Positions 13,202 through 59,545 of a DNA stretch of 64,000 bases are shown in pieces. Position 1 is the first letter of the stretch; every line of letters begins with the position of its first letter. The translations under genes were made by a program, and so were the position numbers. Below the pieces are notes generated by a model. The model was not told the origin of the DNA. It did no database searches and worked only from the letters and a program-made list of their open reading frames with translations. This DNA comes from Eledone cirrhosa (Eukaryota), in the NCBI GenBank assembly GCA_964016885.1, contig OZ024755.1:14756001-14820000 (forward strand), read 5' to 3'.

Positions 13202-13385
13202 ATATAGAAGAGCTACAGACTAGAACTCTTTCATTCGTGAGAAATCATCAGAGCTACCTGATGATTTTTCACGAATGAAACAGTTCTAGTCCTGTAGAAG
13301 CTCTTCTATATTAAAACTTTTATACTCTGCTATGTATTGAGTACCTTACTTACTGTGGTTACCTCCGATTCAACCCGGAATAACT
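13202..13385 (+). mobile_element. Fold-back PLE-terminus-like element in (TA)n: arms 13202-13251 / 13258-13311, tail 13312-13385
   Basis: Imperfect inverted repeat around agctac; hammerhead motif in the sense arm; (TA)n on both sides. Confidence 0.75.
13250..13304 (+). ncRNA. Type I hammerhead ribozyme motif
   Basis: agagctac CTGATGA tttttcacgaat GAAA cag-ttctagtc-ctg TA gaagctct: intact core, stem III cag/ctg, GUA triplet, stem I agagct/agctct; stem II is weak. Confidence 0.7.
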
Positions 13386-14040
13386 TATATATATATATAA
13401 ATGTATATACATGTGTATGCATACCTGCATATATGTGTATATAAATATATATTATATATATTTGTGTGTATTTATATATATATTATATATATATGTGTAT
13501 TTATATATATATTATATATATATAAATACACATATATATAATATATATATAAATACACACAAATATATATAATATATATTTATTTATAATATATATATAT
13601 ATATATGTGTATTTATATATATTATATATATATATATATATGTGTATTTATATATATATTATATATATATATGTGTATTTATTTATATATATATATTATA
13701 TATATGTGTATTTATATATATATATATATATTATATATATATATATGTGTATTTATATATATATATATATTATATATATATATATATGTGTATTTATATA
13801 TATACATATATATATATATATATATGTGTATTTATATATATACATATATATATATATGTGTTTATTTATATATATTATATTATATATTATATATATATAT
13901 GTGTGTATTAATATATTATATTATATATTATATTATATTATATATATTATATATATATATATATATATTATATATTATATTATATATATATATTATATAT
14001 TATATATATATATATATATGTGTATTAATATATTATATTA
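13386..14040. repeat. TA-rich minisatellite (tatgtgtattt(at)n units) with an internal palindrome at ~13441-13580
   Basis: Direct inspection. Confidence 0.9.
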
Positions 14041-14229
14041 CGAGGTGCGTGTTTTTATTCATGTACAAACTATTGAATGGCCTTTGTTTCTTATCAGATA
14101 CTCCACAGTTTGAGGGGTCTTGTTTTTTACATCACGTAGAGTATCCAAAATTCCCTTGATCACCAGGCGAGCTTTGTGAGGTTGCTGGTTTAGTTGCTTG
14201 GAATCTAAACTTGGAACAGGTTGTTCGTT

Positions 14230-14730
14230 ATTTTTATCGGTAGGAGAAAGCCGATTAAATCAACCTTGTTACTGGTAATTTATTTTATTGACCCAGTAAG
14301 GATGAAAGACAAAGCTAACATCGGTGGGATTTGAACTCAGAGCTTAGAGAACCGTATCACTATGTTGCAAATCATGTTGATCGATGCTCAACCGACATAT
14401 AATAATTGTTTCTACTTTAGGCACAAGGCCAGCAATTACCCAGTGCATTACTGATAATTTATTTTATCGACCCTGTAAGGATGAAAGGCAAAGTCAATCT
14501 CGGCGGGAGTTGAACTCAGATCGTAAATGATTTCTAGTATCGGCACAAGGCCAGTAATTTGAAGGGGTGGGGGAAGTCGATTAAATCGACCCCAGTGCAT
14601 TAAGGTGCTTTAGTTTATCGACCCCTAAGGATGAAAGGCAAAGTTAACCTCGGTGGGATTCGAACTCAGACCGTAAATGGCAGTAACTCTATGCTACAAA
14701 GCACGGCGTCCATCCACCACCCAATCAACC
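14230..14730 (-). mobile_element. Three tandem partial SINE copies
   Basis: Three repeats of ttatcgaccc..aaggatgaaaggcaaagttaacctcgg.gggatt.gaactcag. Confidence 0.85.
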
Positions 14731-16257
14731 GACATATAATAGTAAATACATATTTCTCTCTCTCTCTCTCTCTCTCTCTGTCATGCATACATGCACACGT
14801 GTGTGTGTATATACACGCACACACACACACACACCGAATGTAAAATATTCACAGATAATAAAGAAGCAGATATGGGCAAGTGAGGAAGAGAGAGAGTGGG
14901 GGGGGGGTACACAGAGAGCTAGACAGCATATGTGTTATCGAAAATACTACTTAGGAGAGATAGATCCCTATATTTATTTCCTCGTCTTTTAATATTTTCT
15001 CTGGTCTTATTAAACAAAACAAATTAATGTCAGGCGCCAAATCTTATTTTAGTTTAAGGCCTAGAATTGTCAAAGCAATTTATGTATTGTTAGATATAAT
15101 ATGTTTGAGCAAAATATCAGAGCGGTGCAATATTCTTGGGAGATGTTGTGATATGAAAATATGATGAGAATCTAAAATATAATCAGATATTTGCGTATGA
15201 TAATTGGTATACGCAATGGTTATTATCGAATATAAAATAGTTGCAATTCGTGAGGGATTAGTGACCGGATACCCTTTCTACTTAATATATTGAGAGAACA
15301 ATAATCAGCTCATTTCGAAAATAAGTATTTGTTAATATGATGGTCATACGCACATATGGCCAACTCACAATAACAAGATGCGCTTTCAGGTAATAAATGT
15401 GTGCCTGTTTATGTAAGTTATGTAACCGAAGCAAAGGTTACGGTATTAAGAAAGGGAAGAAATGTGTGTGGAGCAGCCGTACAATACAGGAGACATAGTT
15501 AAAAACCTATATGAAAGCAGATCATAAACAGAACGAGAAAATGAGAAAACGAGAGATTGATGGAACGGGAGAGATCAATATATATATATATATATATAGA
15601 GAGAGAGAGAGAGATAGTTCTTCCACACGGTTATATTTAGAATATTTCATGTCAGCATGATTGTAGATTTGTCACCGCTGCACGTTGCACAGGGTAAGAG
15701 CTTTCAACAAAAGCGTTAAGATTGAAAATGCGTAAACATGTGTATGCGGATCAGAGCAAGAGTTTCTGTTACACACATATACAGACTAACACACAGAAAA
15801 AAGATATTCTCACGCACAGACAAACACATTCACATGCTCACCCCCTCCCCACACACACATATATATACGTATATACAGATATATATATATATTTATATAC
15901 ATATATATTATATATATACAGATATTTCATATAATCTTCACATATGTAGGCTATTCTTTCGTCTCATTTCACACCTCTACTAATATCTATTATAAATAAT
16001 CTAACAAGTCTCCATCAATCGGTTATGGTATATCTAGAGAATACAGCTGTATTGCAATATGTAGGTATATAATCAATTAAGCAATAATATACTATCTTAA
16101 AATAATGAGTATGTCAAAATAAACGAAATATTTTGCGAAATATTATACGGGAATAATAACCGCTGGGCTTTACATACATAAATCCTTCTCTGCCTGACAG
16201 ACACTGGTCTTATTAGCTTACTGTTTTGGAAATGACTTCTGTCTGATTCATACAAGC

Positions 16258-56830: not shown

Positions 56831-57435
56831 GGTGGCTGCCAACTCGTTTTCGAGTACGGCCACTACTTTATATCCATGTAGGAGAACCCCTACCGATGCG
56901 CTAAACAAGTGTGACTTAGTCCAGCCAGCGACTTGAAAACTCTGGTACAAACACTACACTTGTGACAATTATTGACACATAGTGCTGGGCCCATGGTACC
57001 ACGTGACGACAAGTGCAGAGAGATCTCCAGGCACAAAGCAATGCCTGTACCGTGAAGCTTTTATAGTGAGTAAAGGCACTGCACAAAGCCAGTCCCACTC
57101 TCTTAACCAAGATGATATTTACCAAAAAGAAGAACAAGTCAACATCATTCGATACCATCAGAGTTGCAGGTGTTATATCAGAGTTTTCCTTCTCCTAGAA
57201 TTCTGCCTTGACAAAGGCTAAGGGGTCATCTCTCCCGGTGATTTTGGACGGCCATTGACTCTTAAGAGCTCCTTTGCCCTTTGACAGGTTTTGTTTTTAG
57301 TCCCGCAGGATGTCCAAAGTCACCCTCCTCACCAAGAAACCTTGGTGGGGTTGCCAGTTTAGTCGCCAACGACCCGACCATGAGACAGGTTGTACTGGGA
57401 TACATGTTACCAGTAGCACCAACTGGTGACCTGAC
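56831..57435 (-). mobile_element. ~600-bp non-coding interspersed element, probably a non-autonomous derivative of an RTE 5' UTR, in (TA)n
   Basis: Second copy at 53745. ctaggagaaggaaaactc and ttagcctttgtcaaggca resemble RTE-clade 5' UTR motifs as I recall them. Confidence 0.55.
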
Positions 57436-59035
57436 ATATATATATATATATACATACATATACATATATATATACACATATATATACACACATATATATA
57501 CATATGTGTATATATATATACATATATATATCTATACATATATATATATACACATATGTATGTATATATATATATATATATGTATATATATACATATATA
57601 TATATATATACACATATATATGTGTATATATATATATATGTATATATATATGTATATATATATATATATATATATATATATATATATACACATATATATA
57701 TATATATATATATATATATATATATATATATATATATATACACGTCGTATATATATATATATATATATATACACATATATATATATATACACATATATAT
57801 ATATATACACATATATATATATATATATATACATATATATATACATATATATATACATATATATATACATATATATATATATATATATATACATATATAT
57901 ATATATATATATATATATATATATATACATATATATATATATATATACATATATATATATATATATATATATATATATATATACATATATATATATATAT
58001 ATATATATATATATATATACATATATATATATATATATACATATATATATATATATATACATATATATATATATATATATATATATATATATATACACAT
58101 ATATATATATATATATATATATATACACATATATATATATATATATATATATATATATACACATATATATATATATATATATATATATATATATATATAC
58201 ACATATATATATATATACACATATATATATATATATATATATATATATATACACATATATATATATATATATACATATATATATATATATACACATATAT
58301 ATATATATACACATATATATATATATATATATATATATATATATATATACACATATATATATATATATATACATATATATATATATATACACATATATAT
58401 ATATATATATATATATATATATATATACATACACATATATATACACATATATATATATATATACACACATATATATATATATACATATATATATATACAT
58501 ATATATATATACATACACATATATATATACACATATATATATATATATACACATATATATATATATATACACATATATATATATATATACACACATATAT
58601 ATATATATACATATATATATATATACATATATATATATACATATATATATATATGTATATATATATATATATATATATATGTATATATATGTATATATAT
58701 ATATATATATATGTATATATATGTATATATATATATATATACATATATATATATATATATATATATATATATACACATATATATATATATATATATATAT
58801 ATACACATATATATATATATATATATATATATATATATATATATATATATATACACTATTGGGTGAGTATGAGGAATTTAATTATATGTGTGTATATATA
58901 TATGTGTATATATATATATATATATATATATATGTATGCATATATACATATATATATATATATATATATATATATATATATATATATATATATGTGTGTG
59001 TGAATACACAGATACATACACACGTAGATATATAT
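57436..59035. repeat. (TA)n/TACA compound microsatellite
   Basis: Direct inspection. Confidence 0.95.
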
Positions 59036-59411
59036 ATTCGTCTTTGAACAAAGCCGGGGATTGTTGCCTATATGTATATTTACATAATGAAAAAAAATAT
59101 ATATATATGTATATATATGTAATGTGTGTGTGTAAATATACATGCATGTATTCACTGGATTCACTGTACAATGTCATAGTAATGTTGGTAGGGTGTATGT
59201 GTATATATATATTGTATTCTAGATCCTGTTATTGAGTTTCAATGACAAAACAAACTGGTTGTTTAATGGGAAGTGATCTTTCCTTCATCCGTATTATGCG
59301 ATGTTAACAATGGTATTACGCCTGTATTTCTCTCCCATTCACTCTCTTCCTGTCTCTCAATGTGCGTATATATATATATATATCTATATATATATATATA
59401 TATATATATAT

Positions 59412-59545
59412 TGTAATAATAATAAATCTGAAGACTAAAATCCAAAGAGTGCTCGAATAGGATAAATATATATCAAATATATAAGAACCGTTAAGGGTGA
59501 AAGCAGCGATTATTTGCTTACACTTTAATCTGTTATTTTAATATA
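59412..59545 (-). mobile_element. Family B copy with internal deletion (tail fused to inverted arm), in (TA)n
   Basis: 59412-59488 matches 24061-24136; 59488-59545 matches 24223-24278. Confidence 0.8.

Follow-up and report, generated by a model that had tools for sequence, protein, structure and literature searches.

A conserved bulged hairpin in the tails of Hydra-clade Penelope-like elements is a likely docking site for reverse transcriptase

A 64,000-nt window of the Eledone cirrhosa genome (contig OZ024755.1, positions 14,756,001 to 14,820,000) was analyzed, in which a preliminary description had placed a TGAGTRCTCT-like motif at eight sites, at a near-fixed distance from the tail ends of unrelated element families. 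The features of the window are given below, with the motif sites named by their positions; hairpin 1 is the structure to which the motif belongs.

13207..13280, plus strand: family B insertion, with a 5' inverted copy (13207-13251) and a type I hammerhead core found by regex (13258-13280)
13324..13346, plus strand: family B hairpin 1 (site 13338); element end at 13385, Hydra-type end
17809..17837, plus strand: family C hairpin 1 (site 17830); element end near 17890
18003..20553, minus strand: non-Hydra Penelope-like element with C-terminal endonuclease (EN), DKG motif (SDKG), GIY-YIG and a 40-nt tail; hairpin absent
22998..24045, plus strand: non-Hydra foldback 3' end with hammerhead, Neptune-like by linker reading; hairpin absent
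24099..24144, minus strand: family H hairpin 1 (site 24094), GCTC/GAGC type, 5' arm mutated, long inner region
24193-24216: hammerhead core beside family H site 24094
37336..37370, minus strand: inner end of a family G copy; the 10-mer cited at 37371 is not a hairpin
37513..37532, minus strand: degenerate hairpin 1 of an E-like subfamily (site 37508); element end at 37466
38445..38472, plus strand: family A hairpin 1 (site 38464); inverted copy from 38406, element end at 38516
53592..53611, minus strand: family E hairpin 1 with a 1-nt bulge (site 53587); element end at 53552
54051..54085, plus strand: intact family H hairpin, missing from the preliminary description
59412..59465, minus strand: family H tail (site 59446); the 3' strand of the hairpin alone survives

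All eight strings lie at, or a few bases from, the positions reported for them, and each faces a (TA)n array. Seven sites measure 34 to 43 nt to the array, site 37508 lying at 42 nt rather than the reported 36 nt; from site 17830, the element end is about 52 nt away and the first clean (TA)5 60 nt away. Site 37371 is a false match: the 35 TA-adjacent bases are a family G inner end, and no homologue spans the cited 10-mer. The exact 10-mer occurs four times in the window, three of these 25 to 60 nt from (TA)5. Sites 24094 and 59446 belong to one family (91% identity over 79 nt), and 80% identity over 35 nt relates site 37508 to site 53587, which leaves five families among the seven true sites. 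Their surrounding DNA is unalignable between families in our comparison as well, but they form a single deep clade rather than an unrelated set, because their proteins are about 29 to 60% identical. The near-fixed distance to the tail end stands within a family and fails between families, where it runs from about 31 to 76 nt; the hairpin is instead positioned relative to the element end 6 to 8 nt upstream. Family A is the most abundant family, and family B has 34 homologous matches of at least 40 nt in the G000 loci. Among the 150 Rfam matches listed of 381 in the window, which were microsatellite-driven miRNA models, the family B hammerhead core had no model match.

The hairpin motif is absent from the two non-Hydra Penelope-like families, which served as negative controls. 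The autonomous element of the window was ruled out as a partner of the motif, having another EN type and no motif; two apparent positives of 19 are neighboring family A insertions.

Upstream of the tails lies a single ORF with reverse transcriptase (RT) and C-terminal EN, in families A, C, D, E and H and in the families of loci L050, L069 and L079; none was traced in families B, F and G. Family A is linked to a Hydra ORF (L041, L332), as is family E (L063), family C to a Hydra RT-EN ORF (L068, L143) and family H to a Hydra EN (L107). The features given as common to the Hydra clade by Craig et al. (2021; PMC8557442) include RW(K/R), a DKT-type motif, a CxCX5C linker, CxxC and CxH around E and N, hammerheads, a (TA)n target, tails and 5' inverted copies. 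An N-terminal RW(K/R) occurs in L332, L348, L034 and five metagenome loci, and in 23 of the 24 homologues that have an N-terminus. DKG is replaced by DKT (SDKT in L332 and L050, with the variant SDKA in L034). The translations have the CxCX5C linker, CxxC and CxH around E and N, and no CCHH; alignment A1 is invariant at C376, C378, P385, C474, C477, E480, N492 and C501. Candidate hammerhead cores in the pLTR were found by regex, 41 to 74 nt from the hairpin, and element ends abut (TA)n. On these diagnostic motifs, the traced carrier families are probably Hydra-clade C-terminal EN+ Penelope-like elements. A Naiad identity was rejected on account of the C-terminal EN and the presence of Hydra motifs. 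Tails of about 55 to 100 nt or more differ from the 30 to 40 nt given for the clade (PMC8557442), and 3' UTRs exceed 1 kb at the longest. Tracing of ten degraded or truncated Hydra EN groups reached no tail. Four Hydra ORF pieces had no Pfam match; in a fold search with an AlphaFold model of a Hydra protein, which does not address hairpin binding, the best matches were TERTs (E 5e-9, TM 0.40).

The TGAGTRCTCT string is the 3' strand of a bulged hairpin and thus half of the whole signal. The motif of about 25 nt lies in the 3' tail of Hydra-clade elements that insert in (TA)n and follows the formula RCTC-(free inner stem-loop)-UN-GAGY-RCT, with invariant arms. A U stands at the expected place of the bulge in all 12 multi-member clusters, with the position left unconstrained (family E has a single U); in 38 of the 42 family representatives, the nucleotide before the bulge is a purine.

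Stem covariation was assessed across these 42 representatives, with the hairpin defined by sequence alone. The outer pair is Watson-Crick in 34, against 23.3 after permutation, and the first three inner pairs in 33, 26 and 23, against 17.6, 11.8 and 11.0; the fourth (18 against 13.2, p 0.06) is not significant and has 6 G.U and 5 A.C, compared with 12 G.U and 3 A.C on the sense strand in the first three. The permutation p-values treat the families as independent and thereby overstate independence, because the families share ancestry. In 28 of the 42 representatives, 93.6% of cells are paired, with 27 two-sided changes, a level that none of 500 shuffles reached. The core GAGYRCTY is quasi-palindromic and occurs in all four YR combinations; its right half decays (RCTT, RCCT, TCTT, TTAA) while GAG/CTC pairing is retained. 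A linear palindrome as the entire signal was rejected because this half decays while the upstream arm covaries. The earlier reading of a linear shared motif thus holds in that the signal is conserved, and gives way to a covarying hairpin in its form. Minimum-free-energy folding of the eight window sites recovered the hairpin at least partly in four, and was not used as support because the antisense strand often folded equally well or better. In six loci with twin hairpins, Rfam gave no match at E<=0.5.

Genome-wide, the hairpin pattern has 168,012 matches, against 3,620 for the reversed control. The exact 10-mer followed by 30 to 50 nt and (TA)5 has 14,681 forward matches against 85 for the reversed pattern, repeat overlap inflating the reverse-strand count. 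The positional enrichment called for by the preliminary description is present in held-out random DNA, where 29 of 39 matches lie 25 to 74 nt from (TA)n, against 0.2 in shuffles; a mirrored-bulge control gave 2 of 9. Three Hydra families chosen by EN, independently of the motif, all carry the hairpin. So do published coral and sea cucumber Hydra consensi (PMC8557442); the hairpin is readable in these sequences, and the portion of that paper available here describes no tail hairpin or end rule. Our literature search found no account of the motif, and the preliminary description knew of none. Hammerhead-like segments from other sources contain the hairpin in 26 of 67 cases, twofold in 12 (shuffle mean, 0.09), and no relatives were found in viral contigs. 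The hairpin recurs in Hydra loci of marine metagenomes, in strict form in only 12 of 35 3' segments; several of the others, judged by eye, are tail-less or short-stemmed.

Read-through copies contain, in order, the hammerhead, hairpin 1, hairpin 2 and the ORF start. The ends of inverted (short) copies lie mostly 6 to 8 nt 5' of hairpin 1. Measured in a window of about -16 to +51 nt, 137 of 179 inner ends fall 3 to 12 nt before hairpin 1, and 8 of 11 families have modes at 6 to 8 nt; TA microhomology blurs junction positions by 2 to 4 nt. Family B is heterogeneous, with 13 of its 28 inner ends in range and a cluster at 16 to 17 nt; family F is hard to place (two of five in range), and the family represented by L069 peaks at 10 nt. 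In read-through copies of the four families measured, a second hairpin lies about 6 to 8 nt beyond the tail end. In family A, 50 of 61 copies have their outer end 6 nt before hairpin 2; in family C, 9 of 13 have it 8 nt before. Two small families show distances of mostly 7 and 4 to 6 nt, and metagenome locus L264 shows 6 nt. The gap from hairpin to tail end is the spacing to the second hairpin. None of 12 matches for family B had a second hairpin, and no read-through hairpin was seen; none was found for family E, where the 10 matches inspected of 32 were microsatellite junctions or unrelated flanks.

Since inserted copies mostly end 6 to 8 nt before one of the two hairpins, these likely mark the RT start. 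We consider it likely, from these sequence patterns, that the conserved bulged hairpin, paired in several families, is an RNA docking site that sets the RT start in Hydra-clade tails. RT would dock on the hairpin and draw the AU-rich linker directly 5' of it into the active site, and the nicked (TA)n target would prime on this linker through 2 to 4 nt of TA microhomology. A start primed at hairpin 2 would include hairpin 1 in the copy and yield a tailed end, and one primed at hairpin 1 would yield a tail-less inverted end; the tail of a Penelope-like element would then be the distance between two docking sites. In the Poseidon element PAc, likewise, two RT start sites on the RNA flank the tail (Frangieh et al. 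2024; PMC11167929). As presented there, PAc shares with the Hydra elements two start sites that bound the tail, an AT-rich target and a protein-binding RNA region near the starts; it differs in belonging to another clade, in initiating inside an AC-rich stem loop and in an undefined binding motif. As an observation against docking, two other (TA)n-ended Penelope-like families form tails without the hairpin motif. The results support the earlier proposal that Penelope-like elements carry a conserved terminal cis-signal, and of its suggested functions RT docking appears favored over EN recognition or 3' processing.

GIY-YIG enzymes can cut away from their binding site. During transposition, the EN might thus recognize the GAGYRCTY quasi-palindrome, or a hairpin of single-stranded DNA, in an intermediate, and produce both ends by cutting 6 to 8 nt away. 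The quasi-palindromic core with its four YR combinations would suit such an enzyme, Craig et al. (PMC8557442) attribute tails to EN-mediated resolution, and the Drosophila virilis EN is stated to need the tail for recognition (PMC11167929). We regard this as unlikely: duplex recognition needs no covarying inner stem of free length and sequence, the right palindrome half decays while GAG/CTC pairing holds, G.U exceeds A.C on the sense strand, and the ends of a Penelope-like element in vitro are reported as RT start sites on RNA (PMC11167929).

Because the hairpins sit between hammerhead and AUG, a role in translation or protection of the uncapped, hammerhead-cleaved RNA was also considered, with ends falling just 5' of them since the linkers are open, AU-rich and matched to a TA primer. 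Both hairpins do lie in the 5' leader directly before the ORF in the read-through layout, the offset from hammerhead core to hairpin is 41 to 74 nt, the linkers have TA microhomology, and family B ends vary. Still, the 6 to 8 nt offset recurs at both hairpins despite differing linker sequences and other TA dinucleotides nearby, and a single leader element requires no duplicate matching a second end, which makes this explanation improbable too. Neutral shared ancestry, with the motif a functionless leftover of one diverged family, fits the finding that every traced carrier belongs to one clade but is largely refuted by covariation and highly implausible, as the arms are invariant and stem changes compensated where flanks are unalignable between families, and the motif persists in coral and sea cucumber.

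A more specific form of the docking model is possible, though we hold it only tentatively: two TAR-like arginine-sandwich hairpins may act as molecular rulers, each docking one subunit of a telomerase-related RT dimer, fixing a start 6 to 8 nt upstream, with the two nicked target strands primed at two programmed internal sites. More speculatively, the purine-U-N-G-A-G bulge could fold as an arginine sandwich that the basic N-terminal RW(K/R) helix recognizes. A bulged pyrimidine after a paired nucleotide, then G-C and A-U pairs, is the sequence pattern of such a sandwich and is found here. As in HIV-1 TAR/7SK (Pham et al. 2018; PMC6189040), there is a paired purine, a bulged U and G-A-G paired to C-U-C, corresponding in TAR to A22, U23, G26, A27-U38 and G28; the Hydra hairpin is circularly permuted, with the bulge on the 3' strand and the GAG helix outer. 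We describe it as resembling TAR by analogy and claim no homology.

LINE or R2 RTs recognize 3'-end stem-loops, and telomerase RNA has anchoring elements; in these systems, as proposed for the Hydra hairpins, RT recruitment and template placement depend on a cis RNA structure. The LINE stem-loops are located 5' of the point where synthesis begins and are themselves copied, whereas each Hydra hairpin would be 3' of its own start site and uncopied from that site, and is duplicated.

How Penelope-like elements choose internal starts and form tails is a matter on which PMC11167929, as far as available here, maps start sites and leaves the signal undefined. If the ruler reading is true, the hairpin would be the first defined cis-code for initiation in these elements, explaining tails and head-to-head inversions, and a portable means to program internal initiation of reverse transcription. 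Its invariant arms and fixed offset to both ends make exact mutations testable. With about 168,000 matches here, it could also serve as a tag to locate Hydra ends where genomes lack annotation, and it offers a minimal RNA partner for the structure of a telomerase-related RT. The sequencing runs listed as carriers included no RNA run. Finally, in contigs of run X4, which was not counted as evidence because it may be the source sample, depth falls past the outer end and TA loose ends occur at both sites.

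The window is AT-rich (29% GC, in a 3.0-Gb animal genome, putatively of an octopus-like host) and contains many (TA)n arrays, separated mostly by the 3' ends of Penelope-like elements (PLEs). These 3' ends are often paired head-to-head, a short inverted copy facing a longer tailed copy. Other features in the window include the following.

14320-14740, tRNA-like SINE copies or tandem remnants
37560-37850, tRNA-like SINE copies or tandem remnants
54120-54313, tRNA-like SINE copies or tandem remnants (two of these directly abut Hydra ends)
18003-20553, minus strand, a very young non-Hydra PLE family (L001-L030) with tandem full-length copies
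38072, a perfect match to TGAGTGCTCT whose nearest following (TA)n is 305 nt away, with no homologue among the sampled loci, probably a chance match or a decayed copy

The preliminary description listed eight TGAGTRCTCT-like strings facing (TA)n in unrelated families. All eight are present and oriented toward (TA)n, and seven represent the motif, in five Hydra-clade PLE families (A, B, C, E, and H). Site 37371 does not: a family G copy has its inner end there, beside an unrelated 10-mer. Sites 24094 and 59446 belong to the same family, and there is also a relationship between 37508 and 53587. Genome-wide, the 10-mer followed by 30 to 50 nt and (TA)5 gave 14,681 forward matches, mainly family A, compared to 85 for the reversed pattern.

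The 10-mer is the 3' strand of a hairpin, RCTC-[inner stem-loop]-UN-GAGY-RCT. All intact copies have RCTC 5' of GAGY, a self-complementary insert between them (a few bases up to about 95 nt), and a 1- to 2-nt bulge on the 3' side. The pattern was defined on 80 evenly spaced 10-kb genome stretches, where 44 of 62 matches lay 25 to 74 nt from (TA)n, and tested on 60 new stretches. Of the 39 held-out matches, 29 were at that distance, against 0.2 in shuffles; a mirrored-bulge control gave 2 of 9. The random stretches yielded 14 clusters with a TA-proximal member, although two of these resemble singletons that arose by chance. A genome-wide count gives 168,012 occurrences of the full pattern, versus 3,620 of its reverse.

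Base pairing was assessed by covariation in 42 of 48 family representatives (six with inserts under 7 nt were left out), with matches chosen by sequence alone and pairs counted only afterwards to avoid circularity. The outer pair is Watson-Crick in 34 representatives (permuted mean, 23.3). The first three inner pairs reach 33, 26, and 23 (permuted means, 17.6, 11.8, and 11.0, respectively), and the fourth, at 18 of the 42 versus 13.2, is not significant. In the 28 representatives that combine a mid-length insert with a purine as the first arm base, pairing holds in 93.6% of cells and 27 cells changed on both sides; none of 500 shuffles scored as high. Kinship among families inflates all of these tests.

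ORFs 5' of hairpin tails show RW(K/R), DKT, CxCX5C, CxxC, and CxH, listed as diagnostic Hydra features by Craig et al. (PMC8557442). Pairwise protein identity between hairpin families is about 29 to 60%. The hairpin occurs in all three families picked by endonuclease, independently of the motif; ten further endonuclease groups, degraded and not traceable, fall outside this test. It was found in 0 of 19 tails of one non-Hydra PLE family, after removal of two neighbouring insertions, and in 0 of 17 of a second. The non-Hydra family at 18003-20553 shows 98 to 100% protein identity (122 scored copies, 29,987 candidates), and in L020 the hammerhead core has CCGAAGA in place of CUGANGA.

Among 79 metagenome loci, 35 segments were testable for a strict hairpin 3' of the 3' hammerhead, and 12 carry one (shuffle mean, 0.82). 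Of 67 hammerhead-like segments, whether 5' or 3' of the ORF, 26 are followed by the sequence pattern (shuffle mean, 0.09), 12 of them with two copies. By eye, L259 has three successive copies 3' of a hammerhead (2230-2400), and the upstream copy in L261, L268, and L325 is a variant followed by AG in place of RCT. Among the six published consensi (PMC8557442), inspected by eye, the hairpin is clear in Hydra-2_Amil, Hydra-2_Ajap, and Hydra-1_Ajap (twice, at the 5' end), nearly matched in Hydra-1_Crog, and weak in Hydra-1_Amil; Hydra-1_Obim stops before this region.

A near-fixed distance to the tail end had been proposed. This applies within families, but between families the distance ranges from about 31 to 76 nt; the constant spacing lies upstream of the hairpin instead. 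For hairpin 1, the copy in the element tail, 137 of 179 copies ending in TA 5' of it stop 3 to 12 nt before it. Modes are 8 nt (A, G, and L050), 7 nt (C and D), 6 nt (E and H), and 6 to 7 nt (L142); the L069 family peaks at 10 nt, B is mixed, and F has no clear mode. A read-through search returned 1,549 matches, artefacts among them, versus 348 in the control. Read-through copies contain a second copy, hairpin 2, just beyond the usual tail end, followed by the ORF start. The tail ends 6 nt before hairpin 2 in family A (50 of 61 copies) and metagenome locus L264, 8 nt before it in family C (9 of 13), and 7 nt (2 of 4) or 4 to 6 nt (2 of 2) before it in two small families. Hairpin 2 was not found in candidate read-through matches of families B and E. 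The hairpin is a real and conserved RNA motif, carried by an already known clade of elements and tightly constrained in position. Hydra 3' UTRs (L232, L242, and L079) span 1.1 to 2.5 kb and have (TA)n/(TG)n microsatellites within them, the hammerhead-proximal region is directly duplicated in the L069 family, and some family E copies (L374-L381) end in (CT)n and then (TA)n.

Reverse transcription of a Poseidon PLE initiates at two internal RNA sites, the tail being the intervening stretch (PMC11167929). By extension, both ends of Hydra elements may be RT start sites, with each site's own hairpin lying 6 to 8 nt downstream. In the simplest model, the RT would dock on the hairpin and initiate on the AU-rich linker just 5' of it, primed by the nicked (TA)n target through short microhomology. 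Hairpin 1 would be copied only if synthesis begins at hairpin 2. Recognition of the motif on DNA by the endonuclease and a translation or stability role for the hairpins are rival readings, each considerably less likely. The proposed docking and initiation mechanism is directly open to experiment. In permuted form, the hairpin's invariant core matches the TAR arginine sandwich at the level of secondary structure (PMC6189040). Hydra proteins carry the basic RW(K/R) segment within a long predicted N-terminal helix, and we hypothesize that this segment could recognize the TAR-like core.

Six loci carrying twin hairpins have no Rfam match at E<=0.5, and no published description was found in the literature searched, whose scope excludes subscription journals and Repbase reports. 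The hairpin is apparently undescribed, although supplementary RNA-fold figures of PMC11167929 may bear on its novelty. Hammerhead stem III in family G (L373) reads ACTC-N-GAGT and so shares its arms with the hairpin, as it does in several published Hydra families in File S2 of PMC8557442; this may reflect duplication or permit alternative pairing.
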